A stretch of DNA of 64,000 nucleotides, taken from positions 1,248,001 to 1,312,000 of the forward strand of contig CAWBEI010000002.1 of NCBI GenBank assembly GCA_963787835.1, read 5' to 3'. The position numbers and the translations under genes were made by a program. Each line of letters starts with the position of its first letter. Within the stretch, counting starts at the first letter, position 1. This stretch comes from Ignavibacteriota bacterium (GTDB lineage Bacteria; Bacteroidota; Ignavibacteria; Palsa-1295). This document shows positions 15,567 to 40,038 of the stretch, in pieces. The notes beneath the pieces were generated by a model. The model made no database searches. It was not told the origin of the DNA and worked only from the letters and a program-made list of their open reading frames with translations.

Positions 15567-16706
15567 TCAGCGCAATCCCGGTTCTGGATTCTGATTGAAT
15601 ACCTTCTTCTTTCTCGGTGCGCGAACGGGGCGTTTGCGAGCGGGAGCTTTTGTGGGCTTCGTCTCTTCGACAACATCGGGATAGGTATAGATGTCGTACT
15701 TGTAATTGCGGAGCACCCAGTTCTTTTCGTCGTGACTGACAACGTAGTTCGGCAGCATGGGAATTTTTCCGCCGCCGCCGGGCGCGTCGATCACGTAATA
15801 GGGGATGGCAAGTCCGGAAGTCCAGCCACGAAGCTTTTCCATAATATCCAAGCCAACCTTGACCGGAGTGCGGAAATGGTTTGCGCCCTTCGTAAGATCA
15901 GCCTGATAAATGTAATAGGGCCGAACGCGCATGGCGAGCAGCTTTTGCATCAGCTCTTTCACGACCATCGGGTCGTCATTCACGCCTTTCATCAGCACCA
16001 TTTGGTTACCGACGGGGCATCCGGCATTGGCGAGCATCTCAGTCGCTTGCTTGGCCTCCGGCGTGCATTCCCACGGATGGTTAAAGTGAGTGTTTACGTA
16101 AATGGGATGATACTTCTTTATCATCTCGCAAAGATTGGGCGTAACTCGCTGTGGAAGCACACACGGAATCTTTGTTCCAAGCCGAATGATCTCGACATGT
16201 GGAATTTCTCGCAACCCCTTCAGAATTTTTTCGAGCATGAAATCCGTCAGTGTGAGCGGATCGCCGCCGGAGAGAATAACATCCCGGACTTCCGGATGCG
16301 CGGCGATATAATCCAGCCCATCCTGAATGTACTTCATCGAAATTTTGGAAGAATCGCCGACTTTGCGCTTGCGCGTGCAGAAACGGCAGTACATCGAGCA
16401 CTGACTCGTTACAAGAAAAAGTACGCGATCGGGATAGCGGTGTGTGATGCTCGGCACCGGCGACATGGCATCCTCATTCAGAGGATCGTCGGGTGCATCG
16501 ATGTCCGCGAGTTCAATTTCGTCTGGCACGCATTGGAGCCAGATCGGGTCGCCCTTATGACGGATGAGCGACAGATAGTACGGGTTTACGCGAGTTTGAA
16601 AGAAGTCGTTCAGTTGGTCCGCAACTTCCGGCTTGATACCGAATTGAGAAATGATCTCTTCTTTGGATTCAACGGATTTGCGGAGTAGCTCTTGCCAATA
16701 TTCCAT
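15567..16706 (-). CDS. kamA: Lysine 2,3-aminomutase family radical SAM enzyme
   Basis: THRYPDR, CSMYCRFC (CxxxCxxC), LSGGDP, PYYIYQAD and YVIDAPGGGGK (PLP lysine) motifs. Confidence 0.9.
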   Translation of the reverse strand: MEYWQELLRKSVESKEEIISQFGIKPEVADQLNDFFQTRVNPYYLSLIRHKGDPIWLQCVPDEIELADIDAPDDPLNEDAMSPVPSITHRYPDRVLFLVTSQCSMYCRFCTRKRKVGDSSKISMKYIQDGLDYIAAHPEVRDVILSGGDPLTLTDFMLEKILKGLREIPHVEIIRLGTKIPCVLPQRVTPNLCEMIKKYHPIYVNTHFNHPWECTPEAKQATEMLANAGCPVGNQMVLMKGVNDDPMVVKELMQKLLAMRVRPYYIYQADLTKGANHFRTPVKVGLDIMEKLRGWTSGLAIPYYVIDAPGGGGKIPMLPNYVVSHDEKNWVLRNYKYDIYTYPDVVEETKPTKAPARKRPVRAPRKKKVFNQNPEPGLR

Positions 16707-16877
16707 AATAAGTGATTTGATCGAACCATTGCTTCCGGCCTCCCGGAAGACACGGCTCGTGTTAACATTAATGCTTTACATCACGCCGCACATTTCGCAG
16801 CTCTGATGCGCCAACGATTCTTTTTTTCGTCTGCTAAAAGAAGATGTCCCGCTTTCACGGTCGATCTTCCTTTTTGC

Positions 16878-16906
16878 AATATACTACATTGCGAACGAAA
16901 AAGCAA
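16878..16906 (-). promoter_or_regulatory. Candidate kamA promoter
   Basis: Minus strand TTGCTT-N17-TATATT(GC); the palindrome GCAAT-N7-ATTGC overlaps the -10 box. Confidence 0.5.
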
Positions 16907-16931
16907 ATCGTCGGCTTAAAAATCTTTCAAT

Positions 16932-16993
16932 TGTAGCGCCGGCGTCCTCGCCGGTTCCCTCGGCGTGGGACCGGCGAGGACGCCGGCGCTACA
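16932..16993. repeat. GTAG-type REP doublet (REPIN), perfect 24-bp arms
   Basis: TGTAGCGCCGGCGTCCTCGCCGGT ... ACCGGCGAGGACGCCGGCGCTACA. Confidence 0.85.
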
Positions 16994-16998
16994 TGTTA

Positions 16999-17475
16999 TC
17001 AAACTCTTTTGCCGAAAATAACGAGGTCGTCACCTGGTTTATAATAATCTTTGATCTGCGCAAGCACTTCGTAATGCTGCTTTAGGTAAAACGCCCTTGT
17101 GCGTTCGTAACTTGGCTGGCTGCTGGTTTCAGCGATGAGAAGATAGCCGCCGCGCTCGCGCACGAACTGGACAGCGAAGGTGTCTAACTGCTGCGCGATT
17201 CCGTGTCCCTGATAGTCCGGATCGACTGCGATCCAATACATATCATAAGTTCCAACGGTGGCTGGTGTTGGCCCGAGCAGGAGAAACCCTGCTACGCGAT
17301 CCGATATTTCCGCTACGTAAGCAAAATAATCTTTTTGCTCTGGTTGTCCCGTACAAATGTCAATGAGCTCTTCAGCGATCGCGACTTCGGCTTCTGAAAA
17401 ATTCTTCGTAGCCCTGATAAGGTGGAGAATGTTTTCGCGATCTTCTTTTTTTATTTCACGTATCATTGGAAACAA
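16999..17475 (-). CDS. GNAT N-acetyltransferase
   Basis: YWIAVDPDYQGHGIA acetyl-CoA motif; ETSS...Y..TRAFY. Confidence 0.9.
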   Translation of the reverse strand: MFPMIREIKKEDRENILHLIRATKNFSEAEVAIAEELIDICTGQPEQKDYFAYVAEISDRVAGFLLLGPTPATVGTYDMYWIAVDPDYQGHGIAQQLDTFAVQFVRERGGYLLIAETSSQPSYERTRAFYLKQHYEVLAQIKDYYKPGDDLVIFGKRV

Positions 17476-17567
17476 TGTTACGAATGTCGCGCTTAACGTC
17501 TCGAATGTTTCGATGGTTCAATGTTGAAGGCTTCATTCAAAAATTTTCATACACCGGCTCGACCGTT

Positions 17568-18623
17568 TTATCGAGCACGAGCGACCGCCCGGTCAAGAAT
17601 TTCATTTATGGTTCCAGCGAAGGTTCGGCCGCTCGCACGTGCTGCGCGCATGAATCCCGCATCTTCGCTGATATCCGGATTCGGATTTGCTTCGAGCACG
17701 AAAAGGTTGCCGTATGCATCCAAACGCATATCCACACGCCCATAATCACGAAGTCCCACGGCGTTCGCAGCGCGTAACGCGATGGTTCGAGCTTCGCTCG
17801 CAATGTTCTCCGGCAACTTCGCCGGACATTCCGGCATCGTCGTTTGATAAAGAGGCGACTCTTCCACCCACTTCGCTTCGTAGCTCACGATGTGCGGCAT
17901 TCCTTCCGGCATGTTATCGAATGTAATTTCCGAGATCGGAAGCGTGATGAACTTACCATCAGACGCCGCTAACACTGCAACGTTTAATTCGCGGCCATCG
18001 ATAAATTCTTCTGCGAGCGCCGGTTGATCGAATTCTTTTTGAATGAACTGGACTCTTCTTTCGAGAGCATGCACATCATGCACGATCGCGTTGGAGTCGA
18101 TTCCTATGCTCGCATCTTCATGTACGGGCTTCACGATAAGTGGGAAGCGCATTTCTGGATCAAGTCCTCCCAATATTTTGTGCTCGAAGAGCTGATGTCG
18201 CGGAGTGGGGATTCCCTTTGCAACGAAGATAGCCTTCGCGAGCGCCTTTTCAAGTGCAAGGCCAAGCGCAAGTGGTGGTGAACCAGTATAAGGAATACGA
18301 AATAATTCATAAAGCGCCGCCACATTCATTTCGAGCTTCGATTGTCCGAGAATCGATTCACAACAATTAAAGATGACTTCAGGGCGCTCATTGGCTAAGA
18401 ACGAGCATAGCTTCTCAGTGTTGTCGTCGGCACTGAAAATGGTTACTTGGTGGCCGTGCTCTTTAAGAGCGCTTGCGATGGAGCGCATTTGTTCGAGCAC
18501 GCCATATTCCGACGCATCGATGAATTCACTCGATGGCGGATGATAATTCGGATCCGACCGGCGCAGCCAGTGATCCTCGGAAGCCGTGTTGCGCGGCTCG
18601 TTATAAATAACGGCAACTCTCAA
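17568..18623 (-). CDS. D-Ala-D-Ala ligase-like ATP-grasp protein (B)
   Basis: IPYTGS, FPLIVKP.HEDASIGI, EEFIDGRE, YGRVDMR and LEANPNP motifs. Confidence 0.85.
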   Translation of the reverse strand: MRVAVIYNEPRNTASEDHWLRRSDPNYHPPSSEFIDASEYGVLEQMRSIASALKEHGHQVTIFSADDNTEKLCSFLANERPEVIFNCCESILGQSKLEMNVAALYELFRIPYTGSPPLALGLALEKALAKAIFVAKGIPTPRHQLFEHKILGGLDPEMRFPLIVKPVHEDASIGIDSNAIVHDVHALERRVQFIQKEFDQPALAEEFIDGRELNVAVLAASDGKFITLPISEITFDNMPEGMPHIVSYEAKWVEESPLYQTTMPECPAKLPENIASEARTIALRAANAVGLRDYGRVDMRLDAYGNLFVLEANPNPDISEDAGFMRAARASGRTFAGTINEILDRAVARAR

Positions 18624-18626
18624 GTC

Positions 18627-19101
18627 AATTACGAATTACGAATTACGAATTTCAAATTACGAATTTTAATCGGCGTCATCCTTTAATCTTCTTTTCATTG
18701 TTTTCTGAATGGATCCTAAAATTTTCAGCAATTCTTCGCAATCAGCAAGCATCGATTCAGCCATTTTCTTGGTGAGATAGCCCGAGTCACGCAATAGTCG
18801 AAGCCAATAGTGTGTTTCTCTTGCCTCACGATAAGAGATATTAAGTTTCGCGAGAAAATCCTTCTTGGACCTGGCTCCTACAAACTCCTCTGCGTTTGCT
18901 CCGATTGAAGTACCGGAGCGAAGTATTTGGTCTTTTAAAACAAATGCCTTTTTCTCCTGCAAATACTCACTCAACCCTATGATCCTAAGAGCAAACGCAT
19001 AGCTCTTATCTAAGATGATTTTTTGTTTCATCGCATAATGGGACTAAAGAGCACGCAGCAAGTAAATAAAATTCGTAATTCGTAATTTGAAATTCGTAAT
19101 T
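18627..19101. mobile_element. Intervening element: four-helix-bundle gene between inverted heptamer (AATTACG)n arrays
   Basis: Left 18627-18665 (AATTACG)3 AATTTCA AATTACG AATT; right 19070-19101 is an inverted array of the same units. Confidence 0.7.
18666..19031 (-). CDS. Four-helix-bundle protein (23S rRNA IVS protein / TIGR02436-like)
   Basis: QILRSGTSIGAN.EE...S.KDF..KL.IS.RE.RET.YWL.LL family signature. Confidence 0.9.
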   Translation of the reverse strand: MKQKIILDKSYAFALRIIGLSEYLQEKKAFVLKDQILRSGTSIGANAEEFVGARSKKDFLAKLNISYREARETHYWLRLLRDSGYLTKKMAESMLADCEELLKILGSIQKTMKRRLKDDAD

Positions 19102-20187
19102 CTACTTCTTTACTTGTTTGCGTTCAAATTGCAATGGGATACCGTACCGGTCGCAGCCGGATTTTAGGACAGATAGGAGCATCCCTTCATACGTGAGCCC
19201 CGCAGCGCGGGCGGCTTTGGGAAAGCAGGAATTTTCTTCGGGTTTGGGAAGAATGCCTGGTAACGGATTCACCTCGATGACATTCACGCGGCCGCGCGCA
19301 TCCAATCGGACATCGATGCGCGCCCAATCGCGGCAATCGAGGACTTCAAACGTCCGCAGCACGACGGCTTCAATCTCCTCTTTCAGCTTGATGGAAATAT
19401 CTGCGGGACAAGTGAAAATGTGGAGCGGACGTTCCGCTACATCATACACCCACTTTGCTTCGAACGAATAAATGTTATTCGCTTCAGGCGGAAGTTCACC
19501 GAGATTTATCTCGACGATCGGCAGTACATGTGCTTTCTCGCCTGAACCCAGGACCGCTACAGTAAACTCACGTCCGGGAAGGAACTCCTCGATGAGTGCG
19601 GGTTGATGATATTCGTTGGAGATTCGCTCGATCTCGCGGTTCATGGCATCTAGGCTTGTGACGAAGGATGAATTCCGAATGCCTTTCGAGGAGCCTTCGG
19701 AAAGCGGCTTTACAATAAATGGAAAATCAGCACCGGGCAGCATCGAGCGGATCGAGCCGATAGGACGATCCGAAGTAATGAATCGTGCTACCGGAATTCC
19801 ATGATAAGATAGGATCTCTTTGGTCCGAGCTTTATCGAGCATGAGCGCGAGCGCGAGCGGTCCCGAGCCAGTGTAGGGGATCTGCAGCATTTCAAGAACT
19901 GCCGGGAATTGGGCTTCCCGCGATGCTCCGGCAAATCCTTCGGCAAGATTGAAAACGATATCGAGATCATGCACAAGCAACCGGTCGAGCGCGCGATCCG
20001 GCACCGCTTCGATCACTTCGACCGTTACATCAGGGTGGGACGCTAATCCGGCCCGCACCGCTTCGATGGTTTCCGGCGCGTCCCATTCCGCATAGAGGTC
20101 ATCGTGCGGAATGTACGGATGGCGGGAACGTTCTCGTTCATCGAGAGTACTTTTGGGCTTGATATTGGCTAAGAGTCCTACGTGCAT
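19102..20187 (-). CDS. D-Ala-D-Ala ligase-like ATP-grasp protein (A)
   Basis: VFNLAEG, IPYTGS, VKP.SEGSSKGI, EEFLPGREFTV, ARIDVR and IEVNPLPG motifs. Confidence 0.85.
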   Translation of the reverse strand: MHVGLLANIKPKSTLDERERSRHPYIPHDDLYAEWDAPETIEAVRAGLASHPDVTVEVIEAVPDRALDRLLVHDLDIVFNLAEGFAGASREAQFPAVLEMLQIPYTGSGPLALALMLDKARTKEILSYHGIPVARFITSDRPIGSIRSMLPGADFPFIVKPLSEGSSKGIRNSSFVTSLDAMNREIERISNEYHQPALIEEFLPGREFTVAVLGSGEKAHVLPIVEINLGELPPEANNIYSFEAKWVYDVAERPLHIFTCPADISIKLKEEIEAVVLRTFEVLDCRDWARIDVRLDARGRVNVIEVNPLPGILPKPEENSCFPKAARAAGLTYEGMLLSVLKSGCDRYGIPLQFERKQVKK

Positions 20188-25965: not shown

Positions 25966-27318
25966 ATGTCCTTAATACTTTTGGTTGACGACGAAGCCGC
26001 CGCGCGCAGCAACTACAAGACCATTTTGGAGCATTATGGCCATGAAGTGTTGCTGGCTTCAAACGTTGACGATGCGAAAAAGCTGATCGGGGATAATCGC
26101 GGTATTGATCTTATCATTACCGATATGCGTATGGGAAGTAAAAGCGGCCTCGACATGCTTCGCGAAGCCCGCCAGTTGACACCGGAATCCGAAGTGATCG
26201 TGCTCACCGCTCATGCGGAACTTGAAAATGCCGTGGAAGCGATGAAGCTCGGTGCAGCAGATTATCTTACGAAAGATACTGACTATAAAGAGATCGTGCT
26301 CGTTGTAGAAAAGGCGCTCGAAAAACGCGCGCTGAAACGAGAGATCGATCGGCTTCGAAAACAGACGCGCGAAGAATATGCTTTCGGACGCATTGTTGGA
26401 AAAAGCCCTGCGATCATGCAATTGCATGACGTGCTGCGCCGAGTTGCTCCAACCGATACGCGTGTGCTGATCACGGGGGAATCCGGAACCGGTAAGGAAT
26501 TAGTCGCAGAAATGCTTCACGCAAATAATCCGCGCAGCAGCGGCCCCTTTATTGCTATTAATTGCGGCGCCATCCCACGCGATCTTCAGGAAAGCGAATT
26601 GTTCGGATACGTTCGTGGTGCGTTCACCGGTGCTGATCGCGATAAAGCAGGTCTTCTCGAAACCGCAGACCGGGGAACGGTATTCTTAGATGAGGTTGGT
26701 GAGATGTCGCCGGAGACACAAGTAAAGTTACTACGATTTCTCGAAAAAGGGGAGATGATTCCCGTTGGTAGTGGGCGCGCTCGTTCGGTGAGCGTTCGTG
26801 TTATTGCGGCGACGAACCGCGATCTTAGCGAGGCGATTAGAAGCCATACATTCCGTGAAGATCTCTATTACCGGCTGAAAGTGGTGTTAATCCATATCCC
26901 TCCACTTCGAGATCGTAAAGAAGATATTCCATTACTCGCGCAGAATTTGCTTGAAGAACTTGCGCGAAAGATCGGAAGTAAAGTTCACACCATTTCTACC
27001 GAGGCGCTCGAAGCGCTTACGGAGTACGATTGGCCGGGAAATGTTCGCGAGCTGAAAAATGTGATCGAACGCGCGCTTATTTTTGCCGATGATGGCATCG
27101 TGGATCTCGAGCATCTGCCTGAAGAATTATTTAAGCGGCATCTTGCGCATGTTGCCGATCAAGAGCCGAATGAAATTGCGCCATTGGACGAGATCGAGAA
27201 GAAATACATCCTCGAAGTGCTGGAACGTCTTGGCGGGAATAAACTTCTTACTGCGCGGCAACTGAACATTGCAACAACAACACTTTATCGTAAGCTTCGG
27301 ATGTATGGGATCGAATGA
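25966..27318 (+). CDS. Sigma54-dependent response regulator (NtrC/AtoC family)
   Basis: Receiver (LVDDE, IITDMRM), GESGTGKE, ESELFG...GAFTGA, WPGNVREL and Fis-type HTH. Confidence 0.95.
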   Translation: MSLILLVDDEAAARSNYKTILEHYGHEVLLASNVDDAKKLIGDNRGIDLIITDMRMGSKSGLDMLREARQLTPESEVIVLTAHAELENAVEAMKLGAADYLTKDTDYKEIVLVVEKALEKRALKREIDRLRKQTREEYAFGRIVGKSPAIMQLHDVLRRVAPTDTRVLITGESGTGKELVAEMLHANNPRSSGPFIAINCGAIPRDLQESELFGYVRGAFTGADRDKAGLLETADRGTVFLDEVGEMSPETQVKLLRFLEKGEMIPVGSGRARSVSVRVIAATNRDLSEAIRSHTFREDLYYRLKVVLIHIPPLRDRKEDIPLLAQNLLEELARKIGSKVHTISTEALEALTEYDWPGNVRELKNVIERALIFADDGIVDLEHLPEELFKRHLAHVADQEPNEIAPLDEIEKKYILEVLERLGGNKLLTARQLNIATTTLYRKLRMYGIE

Positions 27319-27321
27319 TCC

Positions 27322-29052
27322 CTAAAACACTTTGCCTGTAATCATTTGTAGGTGCTCAAGTATCGGTCCGATTGCTAACGCGGGAAAATACGTCAGTCCT
27401 CCAACGATAAAGATCACTGCAATAAGCAGACCTCCGAACAGAAGATTGTTCGTTTGAAACGTGAATTTAGATGGAGGCGCGGAAGGTTTTTCAGCAAGCG
27501 AACCAGCCATGGCAAGCATTGCGATCATTGTCGTAAAACGTCCGACAAGCATCGCGATGCCGGTCGTGATATTCCAGAATGTCGTGTTTACTTGCAATCC
27601 CGCCATGATCGAGCCATTATTTGAGGTGGTTGAAGTGAAGGCATAGATAAGTTCCGTAAGTCCATGCGTACCTTTATTTCCGATACTATTCAGCATTTCT
27701 GGCGACACCGCTGCCCATGCGGAAAATCCCAAAATGCAGAAGGTGGTCGGGAGCAGTGCGAGCATGGCAAGTTTCATTTCGCGCGATTGAATTTTCTTTC
27801 CCAGATATTCCGGTGTGCGGCCTATCATGAGCCCGGCAATGAACACGGTTATCACCACGAGCAAAAGCATTCCATGCAGACCGGAGCCAACGCCACCAAA
27901 GATGATTTCTCCTAACATCATATTGACGAGCGCGATCATCCCGCCGAGTGGCGTGAAGCTATCGAGCGATGCGTTCGTTGCGCCATCAGAAACATCCGTG
28001 GTGACGGTTTCATACAGTGCGGAATTTGCGATTCCAAAGCGAACATCTTTGCCTTCCATGTTCCCGCCCGTTTGGGTTCCAGATGAGTGCAGAATGATAC
28101 GATGACTCTTGAGGGAAGGATCACCATTCTGCTCTGCCGCATACATTCCAAGAAAGCCTGCAAAGAACAGGAAACTCATCACGCCGAATAGCACCCATCC
28201 TTGTTTTTGGTCCTTTACCATTCGTCCGAAGCAATACGTAATGCCGGCTGGAATGATAAGCAGGCAGAACATTTGAAGAAAGTTAACAAGCGCACTTGGG
28301 TTCTCAAATGGATGTGCAGAATTGGCATTGAAAAACCCTCCGCCGTCCGAGGCGCTTAATAATTTTATTATCTCTTCGCTTGCAACTGGCCCCATCGGCA
28401 AAATTTGCCGCGCGCCTTCCATCGTGGTGGTATTGACGTAAGGGGATAAATTTTGAATGACACCAAGTGCCACAAACACTAGGCTTCCCACAATGCTCAT
28501 TGGGATCAAAACATAAAGACAAGACCGCACCATGTCCACCCAAAAATTCCCAATGCCCTGCACTCTCGATCCAGCAAACCCGCGAATAATTGCGATTGCT
28601 ACGGCAAGTCCCGCAGCAGCCGAAAGAAAATCCTGAACTGCAATGCCCACCATATCGGTAAAATAGCTCATTGTTGATTCCCCGTGGTAGGCTTGCCAGC
28701 TTGTTCCGGTCACGAAACTTGAGGAAGTATTAAATGAAAGATCGGGCGCCACCGCAGGAAATCCCATTGGGTTCCATGGAAGAAGGTGTTGAAATCGCAT
28801 GATCCCATAAAGTAGCAACGAACCTGCGAGACTGAAAAAAATGAGCGATAGCGTGTAGCTCTGCCAGGGCATTTCTTCTGCTGCATTAACTCGACATACT
28901 TGGTAGATAAAAAGCTCAGTAGGTGAAAGTATTGGATCGAGGAAGGTATGTTCTTTAGAAAACACGCGCGCAAGATATGTGCCGAGTGGTTTTGTCAGCG
29001 CGAAAATGGCTGCAAGGAGAATGAATCCCTGAAGAATACCGATCGTGGTCAT
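27322..29052 (-). CDS. kdpA: Second, divergent KdpA paralog with altered selectivity-filter motifs
   Basis: Colinear with the KdpA at 34008 ([32 protein letters not shown]), but the filter loops read GTSWQ / SASDGGG / SDG / NNGS. Confidence 0.9.
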   Translation of the reverse strand: MTTIGILQGFILLAAIFALTKPLGTYLARVFSKEHTFLDPILSPTELFIYQVCRVNAAEEMPWQSYTLSLIFFSLAGSLLLYGIMRFQHLLPWNPMGFPAVAPDLSFNTSSSFVTGTSWQAYHGESTMSYFTDMVGIAVQDFLSAAAGLAVAIAIIRGFAGSRVQGIGNFWVDMVRSCLYVLIPMSIVGSLVFVALGVIQNLSPYVNTTTMEGARQILPMGPVASEEIIKLLSASDGGGFFNANSAHPFENPSALVNFLQMFCLLIIPAGITYCFGRMVKDQKQGWVLFGVMSFLFFAGFLGMYAAEQNGDPSLKSHRIILHSSGTQTGGNMEGKDVRFGIANSALYETVTTDVSDGATNASLDSFTPLGGMIALVNMMLGEIIFGGVGSGLHGMLLLVVITVFIAGLMIGRTPEYLGKKIQSREMKLAMLALLPTTFCILGFSAWAAVSPEMLNSIGNKGTHGLTELIYAFTSTTSNNGSIMAGLQVNTTFWNITTGIAMLVGRFTTMIAMLAMAGSLAEKPSAPPSKFTFQTNNLLFGGLLIAVIFIVGGLTYFPALAIGPILEHLQMITGKVF

Positions 29053-29094: not shown

Positions 29095-30423
29095 TTAATT
29101 CCAAAAATCTTGGTCCATGTTTAGTGCTTCGCGCGCACGTTGCACGGCACGTTCGATGTCATTGCGGTCGAGCGCAACAATGTCAGCCATTTCGGTATCG
29201 CGGATGGCCCGCGCTTGTTCCGCTAACATCTGCTTCGCCGGAACTGGCATACGCGGCGCCAGACGTCGTATCACATCGAGCTGGTGTATCAGCACAGCCG
29301 GATTTTGCGCTCCTGCCTGCCGGATCAGATCGAATGCGTGCTTGACCAATCGTTCAAGACGTATCGCCGGCATCCACACGCGCAGTTCGCCACGAAGATC
29401 GTACCAATTGCCTTCGAGAGGCGGCTTCTCTGCAAGTGAGATAAGAACGTCAGCCAGCCAATCAACGCAGGCCAAGCCGGTAAATGTATCATTTACAGCT
29501 GGGCTGAGTGCGCGAATCGCGATCTCGACGATCTGCGCAACTCCGAATTCGCTATCCTGTGTCAGTGTACGGTGATTACCGAGCTTTATGCTGCGACGGA
29601 TGATGGCGTCGAGCAGCGTCACGCATTCCTTCGGATAAACCGCAGCAATCGCTTCGCCGCGAAGCACGAACTGACCGGGACGAAAGCGCAATATTACTTT
29701 TGCACCGGCATTCCCCGCTGCAAGAACAAGCGCTTCGTGGTCAATGTATTGAAGATACCCACTAAGCAGGGATGTTACTACTGCACCATGCGCAGCTTCT
29801 TCCAAAATTTTGGCATCATCTGGTGCAGGTCCGGTTCCCTCAGAAGGCCCGCGTTCCAGTGCTCCGGCTGCGGAAGGATAGACATCTTCAGCAACATGTG
29901 CAACGAGGTCGGGATTCTGTATCGAAGTTGCGATCCTATGACTATAATAAACGAGAAACCCGAAGCTGATGACCACGAGCACCCAGCTTGTGATAAGAGA
30001 AATTTGTGGAATGAAGACGGAAGTTGCGGTCTGGTGCGTAACTAAGAACACCAGTGAGATATAAACGAACGTGGCCATGAAAATGCCGATCGTCATCTGG
30101 GTAACTTTATCTTGCAGGAAGCGATAAAGCAACCGAGGACCGAACAGCGTGGCGACCATCGAAAGCACGAGCAACGCCACGGAGAAGATAAGTGCAAGCA
30201 CGGTCGCAACAGCTCCCATTGTTGCGCTAAGTATGGCGCGCGCATCATCGATACTGCCCATCGTGAGCCACGACGGGATATGAATGATCCCGTATTTGTC
30301 GAGAATATCGGGAATTAAAGTCAAACAGAACAGCGCAACGGAGGCAAGCGAAAGCAATAGCGGAATTCGCCACAAGTTGATATCCCGCTGGGAGCGAAGC
30401 TTGGAATAGGGAGATGCTATCAT
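29095..30423 (-). CDS. DUF2254-like membrane protein
   Basis: ARAILS, FGPRLL..F, SGYLQ.ID and QIVEIAIRALSPAVNDTFT motifs. Confidence 0.8.
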   Translation of the reverse strand: MIASPYSKLRSQRDINLWRIPLLLSLASVALFCLTLIPDILDKYGIIHIPSWLTMGSIDDARAILSATMGAVATVLALIFSVALLVLSMVATLFGPRLLYRFLQDKVTQMTIGIFMATFVYISLVFLVTHQTATSVFIPQISLITSWVLVVISFGFLVYYSHRIATSIQNPDLVAHVAEDVYPSAAGALERGPSEGTGPAPDDAKILEEAAHGAVVTSLLSGYLQYIDHEALVLAAGNAGAKVILRFRPGQFVLRGEAIAAVYPKECVTLLDAIIRRSIKLGNHRTLTQDSEFGVAQIVEIAIRALSPAVNDTFTGLACVDWLADVLISLAEKPPLEGNWYDLRGELRVWMPAIRLERLVKHAFDLIRQAGAQNPAVLIHQLDVIRRLAPRMPVPAKQMLAEQARAIRDTEMADIVALDRNDIERAVQRAREALNMDQDFWN

Positions 30424-30679
30424 CTAAAATAAGGTATAGTGAATATGATCTTATAGCATTTCAAGGTTCTCGGTGTCGAATAATTGTTAAATCTTGGGCA
30501 ATAATTGCGCCAACGTCCAGCAAGGAGTTTTGCAATCTCCGCAATCAAAAATAGCAATGTCGGCGGCATCTTGCATTCTGGGGTGAAAGGTAATGTTATT
30601 GCAGGTATAAGATGTTTTTACGATACCGGATAAATGCGTTTTCCGTTTATTCTCAGTGTATGGCTTTTGTCAAAATTTA

Positions 30680-30719
30680 TAGCGTTTTGCTATGGTCATG
30701 CGTAGCGTTTCGCTATGGT
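30680..30719. promoter_or_regulatory. Tandem palindromic sites, candidate enhancer for the sigma54 activator
   Basis: TAGCGTTTTGCTATGGT (30680) and TAGCGTTTCGCTATGGT (30703), 23 bp apart. Confidence 0.55.
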
Positions 30720-30768: not shown

Positions 30769-30784
30769 TGGCACGCAATTTCCT
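30769..30784 (+). promoter_or_regulatory. Candidate sigma54 -24/-12 promoter
   Basis: TGGCACG-CAAT-TTCCT: perfect -24 box, -12 box TTCC instead of TTGC; about 30 bp upstream of the porin ATG. Confidence 0.5.
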
Positions 30785-30815: not shown

Positions 30816-32264
30816 ATGAAAACCATTCTTTTATTCTTCCTTGCATTCTCACTCAGTGCTTTTTCGATGAATGTTGCTCACGCGGCAGACTTAAACAAAG
30901 CCGACAGTACAAGCCTATCGAAATCCAGTCCTGTTACTGTTCCCGTTCCTCCAGATACGGCCACAGCGGATACCGCCGCAAAACCCGAACCCTTCGCATT
31001 CGGTGATTTTACATGGTTGAACGGCAACGATCGCAGGCACACGGAATTGCTCGACTCCAAATATTTCACCGGCGAATTCCTTCTCGATGCTAATTACGAT
31101 GCATCGAATCAGCATCCCATCGATCACACGGTCATTGGGTCCACTACGCTTGCGCGTGATAATGAATTTGAAGTGAACCTCGTAGCAGCCGGTGGAGATT
31201 TCCACTATGATAATGTTATTGGACGGCTTTTGTTGCAACTCGGTACGCGCGCTACCGACGTTCCGCGTAATGATGGCAGCGTGTACCATGGCCAGTATGA
31301 TTTAGCTGATGCGTATCGTTATTTTAGCGAGGGGTATGGCGGCTATCATTTCGATGTATGGGACGGCATCAATGTAGAGGCTGGTCTTTTTATGTCGTAT
31401 ATCGGTCTGTTTTCTTACTATAATGCGGAGAACTGGACCTATCAGCCATCGTTTACGTCAGATAATACACCATGGTTCTTCAATGGCATGAGGATTCAAA
31501 CGTTCCCATCCGATAAGCTTAAGGTGGAACTTTGGGTCATTAATGGATGGCAATCCTACGCGAAATTTAATAACGCTCCCGGACTTGGATTCCAAATTCT
31601 CTGGCGACCGACCGATGCGCTTCAGGTCCTATCCAACAATTATGAAGGCTACGATACCCAGGACGAACCGGATCGTCTGCGTTTACACACGGATAATAGC
31701 GTGGAAATCAAATACTACGATCATCCTGGAAGTTTTCTGGATAAGATGGCATGCTCGCTTACGCAAGATATTGGCGAGGAGACGGGCGATGGCGTCAATG
31801 GTTTCCATTCCGATCCGGTGCTTGGCCCTGCCCAGTTCTTTATAAGTGGCATGGCGTACGATCGTTTTTGGATGGCGAACGATCATTTCGGTATGACGCT
31901 CGGTGCCGGTTACATTCATAACCCAGGCCGCTATCTTGTGCTCGCGCCAACCGGCGAGGCAAGTCCATATCCGAACCCATATAATCCTACTGCTCCAATT
32001 TCGCCGTATGCTTTTGCGATCGATGAGCCGGGAACCCAATTTACAGGTTGGGACGCATCCATCTCCTGGGACTGGATGCCGAACGATTTCGAAACATGGA
32101 TGGTGCAACTCATTCATCGTGAGGCAAGCGTTCCATATTTTGCCGGGCCTGGCGGCGTGACATCGCCGGATGGTTATACCACAACGCCAATTCCAGAAGG
32201 CTGGACGCCAGATCTTGTCAAAGATGAATCGCAAATTATCGTGGCATTCTTAGTTCGATTTTAA
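30816..32264 (+). CDS. Outer-membrane beta-barrel porin (kdp-associated type)
   Basis: Signal peptide from ATG 30816; AGLFMSYIG, DNTPWFFNG and INGWQ motifs; terminal Phe. Confidence 0.8.
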   Translation: MKTILLFFLAFSLSAFSMNVAHAADLNKADSTSLSKSSPVTVPVPPDTATADTAAKPEPFAFGDFTWLNGNDRRHTELLDSKYFTGEFLLDANYDASNQHPIDHTVIGSTTLARDNEFEVNLVAAGGDFHYDNVIGRLLLQLGTRATDVPRNDGSVYHGQYDLADAYRYFSEGYGGYHFDVWDGINVEAGLFMSYIGLFSYYNAENWTYQPSFTSDNTPWFFNGMRIQTFPSDKLKVELWVINGWQSYAKFNNAPGLGFQILWRPTDALQVLSNNYEGYDTQDEPDRLRLHTDNSVEIKYYDHPGSFLDKMACSLTQDIGEETGDGVNGFHSDPVLGPAQFFISGMAYDRFWMANDHFGMTLGAGYIHNPGRYLVLAPTGEASPYPNPYNPTAPISPYAFAIDEPGTQFTGWDASISWDWMPNDFETWMVQLIHREASVPYFAGPGGVTSPDGYTTTPIPEGWTPDLVKDESQIIVAFLVRF

Positions 32265-32283: not shown

Positions 32284-33777
32284 ATGGCCACCGCGTTGCT
32301 CAATGGTGTTACCATTGGCGATCTCTTTCCAATCGCCTTTCTTGGCGTTCGCAAGAATGACGCCAGGATTTATCAGCGGGCGCGTGAAATGCGAGAGCAA
32401 CCCGCCTTTGCACGTTCAACGCGGTGGGTCGGTGGGAGCGACGATCTCTTAAAAGCCGGACATCCGGCGCGAGCCATCAATGGGATTCGTAATTTTGGAC
32501 AAACTCCAAAACGCACTATGGCCAATCGATTGCTCGAACGCGGACTTCGTGTTCGCATCCTTACCGGATTTTCGCTTGTCATTTTCCTTACGCTGGTGAT
32601 CGCGGGATGGTCGTATTATCATATTTCGACATTGGGAACTGCGGCGGAGCATCTCTTTATCGAGAACTATCGCACGATCAGCTACATGCACCAGATGGAG
32701 CTTGCTGTTGCCGACATGCAGATGAGTGGTTCCCAATCCTTTGCAGAGAACGATGTGATCGTTCAAAAGAACCTTGCCCTCGAATACGCCAACATCACCG
32801 AGCCGGGTGAACTCGAAGGCACACGCACGATAGACCGGGATTATCACGCATTTCTTCAAGCGCGCACTCCGGAGCTTGCGCAAACCGTGCGGCAGGATTG
32901 CGAGGCAGTTCTGAGGATCAATGAGCAGGCGATGTTCGCGCACTCCGAAGCATTCCGAGCACAGGGCGATTTTGCACGGACTTCGACGATAGGGATCACG
33001 ATCCTGCTTGTCGGTGCGGCGATCTTTCTGGCGGTCGCTGTTTCGCGCAGGAGTTTAGCAGAGTTCCAGGAATTGGAGCGTGCGAAAAGTAACTTTGTCG
33101 CGACGGCAGCCCACGAACTCAAAAATCCGCTCAGTGCAATCAAAATGACGAGTGGCCTTCTTGCCGATGGAATTGCAGGTCCGCTTAATGCGAAACAAGC
33201 GGAGCTTTCTGTAACTATTCGGAATGAGTCCGAGCGCATGCTTGCGCTGGTGTGCGAATTGCTCGATCTTGCCAAGTTGGAAACGGGTACGCTGCAATTA
33301 CACCTTCATCCAACGAATGTGGAAACACTTATCGAAAGTGCGATCCTGCCTGTTTCGCTTCGAGCAGAAGAAGCTGGCGTGACGATCGACGTGATGGTCA
33401 TGCGTGACGTGCCCGAAGCACTGGTCGATCCAAATAAAATGGCGTGGGCGATCACGAATTTGCTTTCCAATGCTATTCGATATAGTCCGAAGGGGGCGCA
33501 GATCACGGCGGATGCTCGCGTGATCGAGAACGAAATTTGGATTTCGGTGACGGATCACGGGAAGGGAATTGCGGAAGGCGATCTTACCAGAATTTTCGAC
33601 AAGTTCGTGCAAGTAGAGGAAGGACGGATGGGTTTTGGCTCGGGAACCGGACTTGGGCTTTCGATTGCGCGAGAGATCGTAACCGCTCATGGCGGGCGTG
33701 TGTGGGCCGCAAGTACACTCGGTAAAGGAGCCACACTGACCATCGCACTTCCAATCACGGAACACGCTAATAGTTAA
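32284..33777 (+). CDS. Membrane sensor histidine kinase (start may be ATG 32518)
   Basis: Two TMs flanking a helical periplasmic domain; H-box AAHELKNPL, NLLSNAIRY, DHGKGI and GTGLGLSI. Confidence 0.9.
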   Translation: MATALLNGVTIGDLFPIAFLGVRKNDARIYQRAREMREQPAFARSTRWVGGSDDLLKAGHPARAINGIRNFGQTPKRTMANRLLERGLRVRILTGFSLVIFLTLVIAGWSYYHISTLGTAAEHLFIENYRTISYMHQMELAVADMQMSGSQSFAENDVIVQKNLALEYANITEPGELEGTRTIDRDYHAFLQARTPELAQTVRQDCEAVLRINEQAMFAHSEAFRAQGDFARTSTIGITILLVGAAIFLAVAVSRRSLAEFQELERAKSNFVATAAHELKNPLSAIKMTSGLLADGIAGPLNAKQAELSVTIRNESERMLALVCELLDLAKLETGTLQLHLHPTNVETLIESAILPVSLRAEEAGVTIDVMVMRDVPEALVDPNKMAWAITNLLSNAIRYSPKGAQITADARVIENEIWISVTDHGKGIAEGDLTRIFDKFVQVEEGRMGFGSGTGLGLSIAREIVTAHGGRVWAASTLGKGATLTIALPITEHANS

Positions 33778-33787
33778 CATTCCTATT

Positions 33788-33871
33788 ATGAACGACCTAC
33801 TTTACATCGTAATGATCCTTGCCTTCTTCGGGATCGGCATCGCATTTCAAATGTATTGCGAAAAAATATAA
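33788..33871 (+). CDS. 27-aa single-TM peptide upstream of kdpF
   Basis: Manual translation MNDLLYIVMILAFFGIGIAFQMYCEKI; resembles the small ORFs that precede kdpF in other bacteria. Confidence 0.7.
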   Translation: MNDLLYIVMILAFFGIGIAFQMYCEKI

Positions 33872-33884
33872 TCAACACATTTTT

Positions 33885-33968
33885 ATGAGCGGCATATTAT
33901 TACTCCTCCTTGTAGTTGCAGCGATCGCATACCTGATGTATGCACTGCTGTATCCTGAAAAATTTTAA
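33885..33968 (+). CDS. kdpF: K+-transporting ATPase subunit F
   Basis: MSGILLLLLVVAAIAYLMYALLYPEKF with the YL.YAL..PE.F signature. Confidence 0.9.
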   Translation: MSGILLLLLVVAAIAYLMYALLYPEKF

Positions 33969-34007: not shown

Positions 34008-35735
34008 ATGATAACGAACGGCATTTTACAACTTTTGGCATTTCTCGTCGTGCTTGTGCTGGTCACGAAGCCGATGGGAATTTTTCTCACGCGAGTCTTT
34101 TCCGGTGAGCGGACATTTCTTACTCCGATCTTTGGACCTCTCGAGCGGCTTATTTATCGGATTTGTGGCGTAAATCCTAAATCCGAAATGAAATGGACTG
34201 CGTATAGCGCGGCGATGCTAATCTTCAGCGCAGTAGGTGGCGTGGTGCTCTATGGTATTCTGCGTTTGCAGCAAATTCTTCCGTGGAATCCACAAGGGTT
34301 CGGCCCGGTCGCACCAGATCTTAGCTTTAATACGGCTGTCAGCTTCATAACGAACACGAATTGGCAAGCCTACGGCGGCGAATCCACGATGAGCTATTTC
34401 ACGCAGATGGCCGGACTCGCATTTCACAACTTTGCTTCCGCCGCGATGGGAATTGCCATTGCCGTTGCGGTAGTGCGCGGTTTGGTGCGTGCCTCCGTGC
34501 AGACGATCGGGAATTTCTGGGTCGATCTGGTACGCTGCACACTATATGTACTGCTTCCGATATCTATTGTGGTAACGATCATCTTTGTTGGGTTCGGAAT
34601 GATACAGAATCTATCACCCTACGTAACAGCAACGACACTCGAAGGTGTGAAACAGATCATCCCGATGGGACCTGTGGCATCGCAGGAAGCGATCAAGATA
34701 CTTGGAACGAATGGCGGCGGTTTTTTCAATGCGAATTCTGCGCATCCATTTGAGAATCCGACGGCGCTAACGAATTTCATTCAAGTCGTTCTCATCTTTT
34801 TGCTCGGTTCCGGACTAACCTACATGTTCGGACGCATGGCAAAAGACCAAAAGCAAGGCTGGGCGATATGGGGCGCAATGACGTTTCTGTTCGTTGCTGG
34901 ACTTGTCACGTGCTATACCGCAGAGCAATCGGGGAATCCGATCATGGGAAAACTCGGTATCGAACAAGCTGCGACTGCCACGCAAAGCGGCGGTAACATG
35001 GAAGGAAAGGATGTTCGCTTTGGTATTACGCAAAGCACACTCTTCGCGACTGTTACAACGGACGCATCCTGCGGCGCGGTAAACTCCATGCACGAAAGCT
35101 TCACACCGATCGGCGGGATGGTTCCGCTGTTCAATATCATGCTTGGCGAGGTGATCTTCGGCGGAGTCGGCTCGGGATTGTATGGGATGTTCGTTTTTGT
35201 ATTAATCTCCGTTTTCATCGCTGGCCTGATGGTCGGGCGCACGCCGGAATATTTGGGAAAGAAAATAGAATCGAAAGAAATAAAGCTATCGATGTTGGCT
35301 TTGCTCTCACTCGTTTTTTGCATTCTTGGATTTACGGCATGGGCTGTGGTGGAACCCACGGCGCTTAAGAGCCTTGCAAATACAGGCCCGCATGGTTTGA
35401 CGGAGATCCTTTATGCTTTTACATCGGCGACCGGGAATAATGGTTCTGCATTCGCCGGCTTGAACGCCAACACATTATTTTTCAACATCACGCTGGGAAT
35501 AGCAATGCTCTTCGGCAGATTTTTTGTCATCATTCCCGTACTTGCAATTGCGGGGAGCATGGCGAAAAAGACGCCTGTCGCACCATCGCATGGTACATTT
35601 CTGACAAATAATGCGCTGTTCGGCGCACTGCTGGTTATGGTAATAGTAATCGTAGGCGGACTTACATTCTTTCCGGCATTATCGCTCGGACCAATACTCG
35701 AACATTTGCTCATGCAAGCTGGAAAGGTATTTTAA
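34008..35735 (+). CDS. kdpA: K+-transporting ATPase subunit A (canonical)
   Basis: Filter motifs TNTNWQ, LGTNGGG, ASCGAVN and NNGSAFAG. Confidence 0.97.
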
Positions 35736-35737
35736 CA

Positions 35738-37774
35738 ATGGCAAAACACGAAATTCATAAACAAAAAAAGATATTCGATCCGACGATCGTGAAGCGGGCG
35801 TTGGTCGATGCTTTAAAGAAGCTCGATCCTCGCGTGCTTTGGAAAAATCCCGTCATGTTCGTCGTCGAAGTTGGCGCGGTGCTGACAACGGGTTCCTGGA
35901 TCAATGAAATGGCGTCGAAATCTGGTGACCCCACTTTTTCCGGCCTGATCTCCGCATGGCTGTGGTTCACTGTTTATTTTGCAACGTTCGCGGAAGCAAT
36001 GGCTGAAGGCCGCGGCAAAGCACAGGCGGATGCGTTACGCAAAACGAAGACCGATACCATGGCCAAGCTCATCGGTAAAGATGGTACCGTCACGCAGGTC
36101 AATGCCACTATGCTTCGAAAAGGCGATATAGTTTTAGTCGAAGCCGGAGATACCATCCCTGGTGATGGCGATGCAAGCGAAGGGATCGCATCTATTGATG
36201 AATCGGCGATTACGGGTGAGTCTGCTCCTGTCATTCGCGAAAGCGGCGGCGACCGTTCCGCAGTTACCGGAGGTACTCGCGTTATTTCAGATTGGCTGAA
36301 AGTAAAGATCACGTCGAATCCGGGAGAGACGTTTATTGACAGGATGATCGGCCTCGTCGAAGGCGCAAAGCGGCAGAAAACGCCAAATGAGATCGCGCTT
36401 ACGATCCTGCTTTCCGGCATGACGATCATTTTTGTGGTGGCACTCGTGGCTTTGAACTCGTTCGCCATCTATATGTCAAGCCCGGTTTCCATTGTTGTAA
36501 TGGTTTCGCTGCTTGTGTGTTTAATTCCCACTACGATCGGCGGGCTTCTTTCTGCTATTGGAATCGCTGGTATCGACCGCGTTCTTCAACGCAATGTCCT
36601 TGCCATGTCTGGCCGTGCTGTGGAAGCGGCAGGAGACGTGAACACATTGTTGCTCGATAAAACGGGCACGATCACCATTGGCAATCGCATGGCGACTGCT
36701 TTTATTCCTGCCGAAGGAATTTCAATGGAGTCGTTAGCGCTCACCTGTTATCTTGCGAGTCTGAGTGACGAGACACCCGAAGGACGAAGCATCGTTACAT
36801 TAGCGCAGCAATCGGTTAAGGAACTCCCTTCGGATGTTCTGTCGGCTGAGAAAACCTTTATCCCATTCTCGGCGCACACACGCATGAGTGGCGTGGATAT
36901 TGGCGACCGCGCCATTCGTAAAGGAGCAGTCGATGCAATCTCGAAGTTGTCTGGAACTGGCATTTCTGCCCAAATGAGCGCCCACGTTGAACATATCGCA
37001 AGTTCCGGTGGAACTCCGCTTGCTGTTGCTGAAAATGGAAAATTAGTTGGAGTGATTCAACTGAAGGATATTGTCAAGCAAGGCATGCGCGAGAGGTTCG
37101 AGCAGCTTCGCGCAATGGGAATCAAAACGGTGATGATCACCGGCGATAATCCGCTTACCGCCAAAGCCATTGCTACGGAAGCTGGCGTGGATGATTTCCT
37201 TGCTGAGGCAACGCCCGAAACGAAAATGGCGCTTATTCGCAAAGAACAGGCGAGTGGCAAACTTGTTGCGATGACTGGCGATGGCACGAACGATGCACCC
37301 GCACTCGCCCAAGCAGACGTTGGCGTGGCAATGAACACCGGCACGATGGCTGCGAAAGAGGCGGCAAACATGGTCGATCTCGATAGCAATCCGACAAAGC
37401 TAATTGAAGTAGTCGAGATCGGAAAGCAACTCTTGATGACGCGCGGGGCGCTAACGACATTTTCCATTGCGAATGATGTCGCGAAATACTTTGCGATCAT
37501 TCCCGCGATGTTCATGGTCGCATTTCCCCAACTTGCTGCACTTAATGTGATGTCGCTGCATTCGCCGGAAAGCGCGATATTATCGGCGGTTATTTTCAAT
37601 GCCCTTATTATTATTGCTCTTGTGCCCCTTGCGTTGAAGGGAATTAAGTACCGACCGCTTGGCGCTGCGGCAGTGTTACGACGGAATATTATTATTTATG
37701 GCGTCGGCGGCGTTATCATTCCATTCATCGGAATAAAGGCGATCGATCTGGTGGTATCCTCATTCGGATTTTGA
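35738..37774 (+). CDS. kdpB: K+-transporting P-type ATPase subunit B
   Basis: [35 protein letters not shown] and NDVAKYF motifs. Confidence 0.98.
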
Positions 37775-38373: not shown

Positions 38374-40038
38374 ATGACTGACGCTCTTTCTGTCGAAGAC
38401 CTGCTTCACGAGATCAATTACGCAGAGGAAGCACCGCTGCGGATTTATCTCGGTGCGGCGCCGGGAGTGGGAAAGACGTACCGAATGCTTCAGGATGGGA
38501 ATGCGCTCCGCAATCGCGGCGTGGATGTTGTGCTCGGTTACGTCGAGCCTCATGACCGGAAAGACACGCTCGATCAGATCAAAGATCTGGAAATAATTCC
38601 ACCCAAACAGATCGAGTATAAAGGGGTTGTTCTTCATGAGTTAGATGTCGATGCTGTTATTGCACGTAAGCCACAGGTGGTGCTCGTCGATGAGTTGGCT
38701 CATACAAACGCAACGGGTTCCAAACACGAAAAGCGATATGAAGACATTGAAGACCTGCTTGCTGCAGGCATAGCCGTCTTCAGCACCTGCAACGTGCAAC
38801 ATTTGGAGAGCGTGCATGACATGGTCGAGCGTATGACCGGCGTGAAGGTCCAGGAGCGGGTTCCCGATACATTCTTCGCCCTGGCGCGAGAGATGATCAT
38901 CGTCGATGTGACGCCGGATGAACTTCAGGAGCGGATGCGGCAGGGGAAGATCTATCCACTCGAACGCATCGAGCGATCGCTGTCAAATTTTTTTACTCAT
39001 AGCAACATCAGCATGCTGCGCGAACTGGCGTTGCGCGAACTGGCGAACGACGTCGAGCAGAAAGATAAAGATAAGCGCCGCGAAACCAATACCCCCGGCA
39101 CGGCAACATCCGGCGAGAAAGTGCTCGTTGCCATTCCGCCCACTGAACAGGCCGACCGGCTGATTCGGCGAGGTTCCCGCATGGCTGGACGTATGAATGC
39201 TAAATGGATCGTAGCGTTCGTCGAGAGCAAGAAGACAGTGTTGACCGAAACTATGGAAGCAAAACTGCGAGAATCTTTTATGCTTGCGCGCTCGCTGGGC
39301 GGGACGGTTGTGCAACTGAAAGGCGAACAGGTTGCCAAAACTCTGATCGATTTTGCGCGCGCGGAGGGGGTAACCCAGATCGTCATCGGGGCCACGCAAC
39401 GAGCCATTTGGAAGCGGTATTTCTCTCGCACCGTTGTGGGTGAATTACTCAACCTTGCCGGTGAGTTCGGTGTCTATGTCGTACCCCTCCAGCACGATTC
39501 GGATGAAGTAGAGCGCCTTGTTTCGCCGTCATCCACTGCGGTTCCGCAGGAACAGCCGGTACGGCTTACCGATTATATTTTGCCTGCGAGTATTATTGCA
39601 GATCTTCGCAGCGTCACAACGGTCGAGCAGACGATTGCGGTACTCATAGACCTTCTGATTCAGAAAAACGGTGAGCTGGCCTCCCGCCGCGCGGAAATTC
39701 ACGATCTCATTATGCGCCGCGAGCGGCTGATGAGTACGTTCCTCGATACCGGAATTGCTATACCTCATGCCGCCGGTTTTTCCGGCACGAGTGACATTCA
39801 TGCCGTGATGGCGCTCACGCCGGATGGCGTCGTATCGTTAGGCCGCGATCAAAAAGCGTATAGTGTAGTATTATTTTTGAGTCCTGAAGTAGGGAAGGCC
39901 AATCATTTGAAATTCCTTGCGGCGATCGCGAAAGTCTTCATCGATAAGACCACCACGCGGGAGATCGCCACGATGCCTTCCGCCGAAGATGCCTGGCAGT
40001 TCATTCATAAGCTGGAGTTGACAGGGCGAACGAATTAG
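38374..40038 (+). CDS. kdpD: Soluble KdpD sensor: KdpD N-domain + Usp + PTS EIIA-like domain, no TM or kinase
   Basis: GAAPGVGKT, LVDELAHTN and LRELALR; Usp domain; C-terminal RRERLMSTFLDTGIAIPH and HLKFLAAIA (EIIA type 2). Confidence 0.85.
   Translation: MTDALSVEDLLHEINYAEEAPLRIYLGAAPGVGKTYRMLQDGNALRNRGVDVVLGYVEPHDRKDTLDQIKDLEIIPPKQIEYKGVVLHELDVDAVIARKPQVVLVDELAHTNATGSKHEKRYEDIEDLLAAGIAVFSTCNVQHLESVHDMVERMTGVKVQERVPDTFFALAREMIIVDVTPDELQERMRQGKIYPLERIERSLSNFFTHSNISMLRELALRELANDVEQKDKDKRRETNTPGTATSGEKVLVAIPPTEQADRLIRRGSRMAGRMNAKWIVAFVESKKTVLTETMEAKLRESFMLARSLGGTVVQLKGEQVAKTLIDFARAEGVTQIVIGATQRAIWKRYFSRTVVGELLNLAGEFGVYVVPLQHDSDEVERLVSPSSTAVPQEQPVRLTDYILPASIIADLRSVTTVEQTIAVLIDLLIQKNGELASRRAEIHDLIMRRERLMSTFLDTGIAIPHAAGFSGTSDIHAVMALTPDGVVSLGRDQKAYSVVLFLSPEVGKANHLKFLAAIAKVFIDKTTTREIATMPSAEDAWQFIHKLELTGRTN

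Follow-up and report, generated by a model that had tools for sequence, protein, structure and literature searches.

To our knowledge, only in KdpFABC among the P-type pumps does selectivity reside in a separate, channel-like subunit, and what we know of the Kdp filter derives from point mutants of the Escherichia coli protein. According to the available part of PMC12629597, the filter of E. coli Kdp determines both affinity and selectivity, KdpB being 'relatively promiscuous', and the only charges in the membrane core of the complex are E370 and R493. The KdpA G232D mutant, in the accessible text of that source and of 10.1101/2021.05.18.444724, has a Km raised to the millimolar range and displays coupled transport of Rb+ and NH4+ with very little Na+ activity. 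The K+ ligands of the main site are main-chain carbonyls, contributed by N112, T113, T230, S343, C344, N466 and N467 (10.1101/2025.03.04.641403, in the portion available). Within the same superfamily, E. coli TrkG and TrkH (PMC9898762) and the class I and class II HKT transporters of plants (PMC7918770) provide paralogs with different ion handling; the accessible sections of these sources describe a Ser at the first-pore filter position and acidic residues near the filter that tune cation dependence. The kdp system of Desulfovibrio vulgaris (DVU3334-3339) has its sensor and kinase split and comes with a dedicated response regulator, with no second KdpA mentioned in the available part of PMC3333781. 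We found no description of a second KdpA with an acidic filter, either in the available part of PMC10654040 or in a searched literature that was mostly open-access, without the older KdpA mutagenesis papers or supplements that may cover N114, N231 and C344.

The window, by which we mean the whole 64,000-nucleotide stretch of Ignavibacteriota DNA analysed here, carries such a gene, kdpA2, near a complete kdp operon (Table 1). Its product scores 742.9 bits against the Pfam KdpA model, spanning positions 2-548 of 548, and 673.8 bits against TIGR00680, for which the cut-off is 387.7. PF03814 is the sole Pfam match, with PF02386 (TrkH) unmatched. KdpA2 is a full-length protein, 61.5% identical to the canonical KdpA of the same genome (KdpA1) and about 46% identical to E. 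coli KdpA. The first-pass annotation, which described an orphan second KdpA with an intact reading frame, is borne out by these scores, and all four motif pairs that it quoted match both paralogs. It was also right that kdpA2 lacks a kdpBC of its own. Unlike E. coli kdpA, the gene coexists with a canonical copy and lies outside the kdpB/kdpC operon, in a divergent unit 5 kb away that shares the operator of that operon, and the source genome (97.9% complete) contains a single kdpB and a single kdpC.

Table 1. Features of the kdpA2 locus, in window coordinates.
Feature	Position	Strand	Basis
Sigma-54 response regulator converging on kdpA2; probably activates both units	25966..27318	+	profile match
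kdpA2 (variant kdpA), acidic rewritten filter	27322..29052	-	intact ORF, 576 aa
Filter loop 4, N478-N479-G480, core unchanged (E. coli N466-N467-G468)	27613..27621	-	alignment
Filter loop 3, S355-D356-G357 (E. coli S343-C344-G345)	27982..27990	-	alignment
Filter loop 2, S233-A234-S235-D236-G237 (E. coli G229-T230-N231-G232; one residue inserted)	28342..28356	-	alignment
Filter loop 1, G116-T117-S118 (E. coli N112-T113-N114)	28699..28707	-	computed from residue numbers
DUF2254 membrane protein; probably opens the kdpA2 unit, with 42 bases separating the two genes	29095..30423	-	profile match
Predicted sigma-54 -24/-12 site, DUF2254-kdpA2	30498..30512	-	10/11 consensus positions
Tandem 13-base palindromic operators, likely sites of the sigma-54 activator	30680-30692, 30703-30715	.	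motif scan
Predicted sigma-54 -24/-12 site, porin-kinase-kdp operon	30769..30783	+	10/11 consensus positions
BBP2-type outer-membrane porin (listed ORF start 30612, conserved ATG 30816)	30816..32264	+	profile match
Membrane histidine kinase; putative kinase half of a split KdpD system	32284..33777	+	profile match
Two 27-aa ORFs (33788-33871, 33885-33968), the second KdpF-like, just below cut-off	33788..33968	+	
Canonical kdpA (KdpA1)	34008..35735	+	profile match
kdpB, sole copy in genome, canonical ion site	35738..37774	+	profile match
kdpC, sole copy in genome	37786..38370	+	profile match
Non-kinase KdpD: KdpD, Usp and PTS EIIA domains	38374..40038	+	profile match

The canonical filter N-T-N / T-N-G / S-C-G / N-N-G is absent from KdpA2, which instead reads G-T-S / S-D-G (with one inserted residue) / S-D-G / N-N-G; on account of these non-canonical loops, we class it as a KdpA variant rather than as a canonical member. 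We compared 10 rows of the KdpA2 clade, including one near-duplicate pair, with 119 canonical KdpA rows, numbering residues by alignment to KdpA of E. coli MG1655. Unlike E. coli KdpA, all 10 clade rows have N112G, N114S, the one-residue insertion in loop 2, T230S, N231D and C344D, along with Q129D, N137D, Q222E, A336E, F471M, V496T and P499A. Residues N112, N114 and N231 are unchanged in 119 of 119 canonical rows and altered in 10 of 10 clade rows, so the rewriting of the filter is not a matter of chance. The substitutions introduce six fixed carboxylates (Q129D, N137D, Q222E, N231D, A336E and C344D); the two new Asp residues noted at first pass are both present, and the four others had been missed. 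The fourth loop had been read as rewritten to NNGSIMAG. Those letters are correct, but the core N466-N467-G468 is unchanged and only the Met (F471M) is fixed, the Ile varying among orthologs (I/T/A/S).

As in E. coli KdpA (KdpFABC; PDB 5MRW and 6HRA), the residues Q116, G232, G345, E370, R400, N466, N467, G468 and R493 are kept, and G374 with them, in all 10 clade rows; these include the entrance residue Q116, the vestibule charges E370 and R493 and the filter glycines at 232, 345 and 468. The top structure match of KdpA2 is the G232D laboratory mutant (PDB 7NNP), marginally so at 502.8 versus 502.6 bits, and like that mutant it has an Asp in the second filter loop with the rest of the protein intact. 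Unlike the mutant, KdpA2 is natural and selected, and its Asp, most likely at position 231 beside a retained G232, comes alongside a coordinated rewriting of loops 1 and 3 and of residues behind the filter. When aligned with variants that have no insertion, the loop-2 Asp corresponds to N231D, and G232 is retained in 69 of 69 variant rows among the matches listed; the inserted residue also allows a G232D-like register, the one in which phmmer aligned KdpA2 to 7NNP. An AlphaFold2 model of KdpA2, built from only 17 sequences, has a mean pLDDT of 52 with filter loops below 50. In its Ser at the first-pore filter position and its acidic residues near the filter, KdpA2 resembles TrkG/TrkH and the HKT transporters as the accessible text describes them; unlike these ATP-independent proteins, it scores only as KdpA and keeps the segment that couples to KdpB.

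Fixed changes at conserved columns are concentrated within 8 residues of the filters (9/45 versus 10/150; p=0.013 with the selected site excluded), and the same test is significant in just three of eight variant lineages. Because the K+ ligands are main-chain carbonyls, the substitutions probably act by reshaping the filter loops and the residues behind them. We take residues 353-380 and 398-412 (around R400) to be the segments leading to and touching KdpB; each has an identity of 0.96 in the KdpA2 clade, compared with 0.90 and 0.92, respectively, in canonical KdpA. The N terminus is more variable in KdpA2 (0.51) than in KdpA1 (0.74).

Orthologs of KdpA2 occur in 6 of 35 family genomes (G000, the source genome, and G002, G006, G010, G011 and G042), which represent two genera and share 70-88% identity. 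Within the genus, 5 of 15 genomes carry the gene, the source genome included, and additional clade members were found in metagenomes. Five of the six loci occupy the same position beside the kdp operon. In G042 (67% complete), kdpA2 lies elsewhere with no kdp gene or operator adjoining, and that partial genome yields no match to kdpB or kdpC. The reading frame is intact in all six orthologs, and dN/dS is 0.043-0.066 (NG86) for the 5 of 15 pairs with an estimable dS, the other 10 being saturated. Substitution is about 2-2.7-fold faster in KdpA2 than in KdpA1 (dN 0.115 versus 0.043 and 0.213 versus 0.111), the dN of KdpA2 being near that of KdpC. Given orthologs in 6 of 35 genomes and a dN/dS of about 0.05, KdpA2 is not decaying; this argues against the outcome that the first-pass annotation had named as fatal to its proposal, namely substitutions unique to one genome under relaxed selection. 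We rejected gene conversion between KdpA1 and KdpA2, as the two genes agree at 27% of four-fold sites and share no stretch of identical bases as long as 17. In G006, the canonical kdpA is split by a frameshift (L037:7341-9069), which may be an assembly error, and kdpA2 is intact; kdpB and kdpC are also split in G001 (L041).

The kdp operon of this locus resembles DVU3334-3339 in its split sensor/kinase and its own response regulator; unlike that operon, as the available part of PMC3333781 presents it, here a divergent kdpA2 unit shares the operator. The tandem palindrome is positioned between two divergent sigma-54-type sites and is one of only two tandem pairs genome-wide, while sigma-54-type sites at that consensus level number 140 in the source genome when both strands are counted. 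Of 15 family loci examined, 14 have the palindromic motif upstream of kdp genes; in G011, a further, separate operator pair and sigma-54-type site precede DUF2254-kdpA2. Because the palindromic operator is shared between them, we infer that one sigma-54 activator probably induces the DUF2254-kdpA2 unit and the kdp operon together. The gene had been described as transcribed away from the main operon behind a DUF2254 gene; the orientation is as stated, but the unit nevertheless appears to be co-regulated with the operon. Scans for sigma-70 promoters and terminators at the locus gave no excess over shuffled sequence, and a single RNA run (0.06 share) contained short contigs mostly unlike this stretch, none of them usable for kdpA2.

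A DUF2254 gene is present in 11 of 71 variant loci of at least 10 kb among the matches listed, and none of the 45 control loci has one (p=0.006, with related genomes not independent). In the family, DUF2254 is above cut-off in 4 of 35 genomes, every time beside kdpA2. A search of the ESM Atlas with the DUF2254 protein returned DUF2254 clusters only, and the available part of PMC11184937 covers only the knotted fold. Several other features of these neighbourhoods deserve mention. G010 (L038:11696-12787) and G011 (L039:10929-12020) carry a second, divergent BBP2-like porin gene ahead of kdpA2, and G021 has a similar porin gene at a contig end (L045:10646-11398). Only in G011 does a short hydrophobic ORF (about 78 aa) separate DUF2254 from kdpA2 (L039:13513-13749). 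Both tandem 27-aa ORFs of the kdp operon are conserved across family loci, the first having no NCBIfam match. Elsewhere in the window, positions 15567-20187 encode, by eye, a KamA-like radical SAM enzyme, a GNAT protein and two ATP-grasp ligases, split by a four-helix-bundle gene.

Similar filters are found well beyond the family. We scanned half of a one-genome-per-species collection with a DNA pattern that fixed the Asp at 231 and nothing else; it matched at least 120 loci, from which we estimate about 240. Among the 120 matches listed, 65 are from Pseudomonadota, 33 from Actinomycetota, 17 from Acidobacteriota and 5 from other phyla, and 115 have a readable ORF. We counted residues in 59 full-length rows, after removing short or frameshifted sequences and one duplicate of the KdpA2 clade and adding one metagenome row. 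Among the matches listed, N231D is accompanied by S114 in 57 of 59 rows, by D344 in 52 of 59 and by loss of N137 in 58 of 59, none of which formed part of the selection pattern. The combination S114-D231-D344 is present in 52 of these 59 rows (among the matches listed) and in none of 70 canonical rows, where each of the three residues is likewise absent. S114 recurs in all eight variant lineages among the matches listed. The inserted, six-carboxylate form accounts for 2 of 115 among the matches listed, both belonging to the KdpA2 clade (titles Ignavibacteria and Bacteroidetes). A metagenome scan with the KdpA2 protein returned mostly canonical KdpA; 1 of 80 loci retained is a clade member, and these loci served as the control.

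Flanking DNA was available for 80 variant loci among the matches listed: 27 have both kdpB and a canonical kdpA, 38 have neither (18 of these with the full 20 kb of DNA), in 14 kdpB is present but no canonical loop 2 was detected, and one has a canonical kdpA only. Some of the 14 are truncated or frameshifted, but L148 and L158 are clear kdpF-B-C-variantA operons. Homologs with such filters co-occur, a pattern that the first-pass annotation had proposed to look for, with canonical KdpA, which is present in 15 of 15 carrier genomes searched, a hand-picked set. The ion-site residues of KdpB are canonical at this locus and in 4 of 4 dedicated variant operons extracted, the positions checked being V260, C261, I263, T265, N624, D583 and K586. 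We therefore set aside an altered KdpB in the dedicated operons; 13 other differences in four related actinomycete rows are probably lineage effects. We also observed a differently rewritten KdpA (L163:9296-10870; N-C-F, G-L-D-G, M-N-G, A-D-G), the third of three kdpA genes in that locus, on a divergent N370 branch. Another divergent type (N137M/W, a T-C-G loop and N370) sits in its own kdpABC operon at L145, L189, L194, L216 and L028, and this N137M/W type lies near an acidic variant in four Burkholderiaceae loci.

The altered-filter homologs do not form the single clade that had been suggested for them. In a 49-row tree with pore columns masked, the variants are scattered, and well-supported branches force eight changes under both LG+G4 and C20-PMSF. 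Constraining all S114-D231-D344-type variants to one monophyletic subfamily is rejected by the AU test (p 4e-61 with pore columns masked, 1e-7 with all columns), as is the joining of the KdpA2 clade with acidobacterial and alphaproteobacterial variants (p 9e-7; C20 model, 12 rows, three lineages). In a 32-row bootstrap tree, the KdpA2 clade and the canonical KdpA of its own family are sister groups (100/100). Since the trees reject one clade and the KdpA2 clade groups with its family's canonical protein, the filter likely arose repeatedly, and repeated duplication with convergence is the simplest reading of these sequences. Change counts on trees do not separate gain from loss. Several key filter changes are single-base steps. 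In all 63 rows among the matches listed, S114 has an AGY codon, a single base change away from Asn, compared with 36% AGY over Ser codons generally; inheritance from a single ancestor would also give AGY. At L210, a tandem kdpA pair is 84% identical, and the copy has N114S, N137S, G229S, T230S and N231D. An ancient pore module, retained while the remainder of the gene was converted, finds no support in the KdpA2 clade, its non-diagnostic pore columns being 0.74 identical to the best canonical sequence and 0.70 to other variants. In four other lineages, where the two values tie or lean slightly toward other variants, such a module or old conversion between paralogs may have played a part.

We consider it about an even chance that KdpA2 is a swap-in subunit for a lower-affinity, less selective monovalent-cation pump. 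The components of this reading can be graded separately: judged from sequence, the ion handling of KdpA2 is very probably altered and the protein quite probably assembles with KdpB and KdpC, and by analogy the direction of change is likely toward weaker and broader binding. KdpA2 would take the place of KdpA1 on the genome's single KdpB and KdpC, with the same sigma-54 activator switching on both units. The resulting pump would have a weaker affinity for K+ and a relaxed monovalent selectivity, accepting surrogates (Rb+ or NH4+, for example) besides K+, and may serve at medium K+ in lineages that yielded no Trk/Ktr. The unchanged KdpB suggests that the cation would be monovalent, and an operator in common with the kdp operon suggests a K+-related signal. 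The idea of an alternative A subunit on shared KdpB/C, already raised at first pass, gains indirect support from the purifying selection, the kept coupling segment and the shared operator, as well as from the canonical KdpA of all 15 carriers and the kdpF-B-C-variantA operons elsewhere.

Searches gave no TrkH/KtrB match in 35 of 35 family genomes or in 9 of 10 other carriers; the source genome yielded no Kup and no PF02386 match, and no full-length Kup was matched in the 35 family genomes. This absence does not discriminate between readings, since it is family-wide and without a matched control. Thirteen of the 35 family genomes also have no KdpA match. Directly after kdpD, positions 40108-41979 encode a 623-aa membrane protein that is APC/KimA-type by eye, has no NCBIfam match and is possibly the other K+ importer of this lineage. 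Several points weigh against a lower-affinity pump. Most of the changed filter positions bind K+ by main-chain carbonyls, so side-chain swaps need not weaken affinity, and Asn-to-Asp could be near neutral if the Asp is protonated. Co-induction under K+ shortage sits awkwardly with a lower-affinity pump, and the faster evolution of KdpA2 relative to KdpA1 and the lack of kdp neighbours in G042 also count against it.

KdpA2 might instead remain a K+-selective partner of KdpB/C that is tuned to acid, with Asp and Glu protonated at low external pH and a filter that works best, or opens only, under those conditions. Amide-to-acid swaps make up four of the six gains (Q129D, N137D, Q222E and N231D), co-regulation with kdp suits a K+ role, and the available part of PMC9062700 discusses Kdp within acid tolerance. 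Many titles among the 120 matches listed name peat, bog, palsa or acid-loving genera, as judged by eye with no control titles for canonical kdpA. We nonetheless consider acid tuning unlikely, as protonation leaves the side-chain losses at N112, N114, N137 and T230 unexplained.

Rather unlikely, too, is a hybrid pump that mainly imports a different monovalent cation, either NH4+ or Na+, the latter replacing K+ as an osmolyte during K+ starvation. The N114S change falls at the first-pore position where, in the accessible text of PMC7918770, Ser marks Na+-uniporting class I HKTs, an equivalence that we draw from the G232/G345/G468 register; S114 is found in eight of eight lineages among the matches listed, and E. 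coli G232D pumps NH4+. The same text records exceptions to the Ser rule, G232D has very little Na+ activity, and the operator belongs to kdp, with no separate one. The NH4+ option named at first pass finds no backing in the gene neighbourhood: amt is present in 0 of 80 variant loci among the matches listed, and the source genome has its own Amt elsewhere.

We judge it quite unlikely that KdpA2 has a non-pumping role, whether by titrating KdpB/C as a decoy, by sensing ions or by forming a channel on its own, perhaps together with the DUF2254 protein. The 38 of 80 variant loci (among the matches listed) in which the fetched DNA holds neither kdpB nor a canonical kdpA would suit such a role, as would the DUF2254 association (11/71 versus 0/45 loci among the matches listed, and 4/35 family genomes) and the fixed changes V496T, P499A and G518F outside the filter. 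The vestibule and tunnel charges are retained, however, and a decoy would not require the same filter solution repeatedly. It is also a difficult reading for the L148 and L158 operons, because there the variant is the only A subunit beside kdpF, B and C.

A pump for a divalent cation (Mg2+ or Ca2+), proposed at first pass on the strength of the new Asp residues, is very improbable. Six new carboxylates do enter a core where E. coli has only E370 and R493 charged, but the ion site of KdpB is unchanged, dedicated operons included, and D231 and D344 occupy the second position of the filter, to which C344 contributes its carbonyl as a K+ ligand. In channel structures, side chains at the equivalent position point away from the pore. 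Finally, KdpA2 can hardly be a decaying or neutral duplicate: it is faster than KdpA1, patchy (5 of 15 genus genomes) and reached in several key changes by single-base steps, but its dN/dS is about 0.05 (dS saturated), its frames are intact (6/6), its derived residues are fixed (10/10) and the same changes appear in distant phyla.

KdpA2 is a real, selected and apparently undescribed variant of a known pump subunit, and second, acidic-filter genes of its kind all carry the annotation of ordinary kdpA. Among the matches listed, cultured carriers include Paraburkholderia, Planotetraspora, Catenulispora and Methylocapsa, so direct testing is feasible. A natural alternative filter on an unchanged KdpB offers a ready test of whether the filter alone fixes affinity and selectivity, and also of whether subunit exchange can retune a P-type pump. 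A broader picture, which we advance only tentatively, is that bacteria have repeatedly duplicated KdpA and converged on an S114-D231-D344 filter, reprogramming the cation of Kdp by a swap of its channel subunit, and that the six-carboxylate form may pump NH4+ or Na+ rather than K+, or may be proton-gated.
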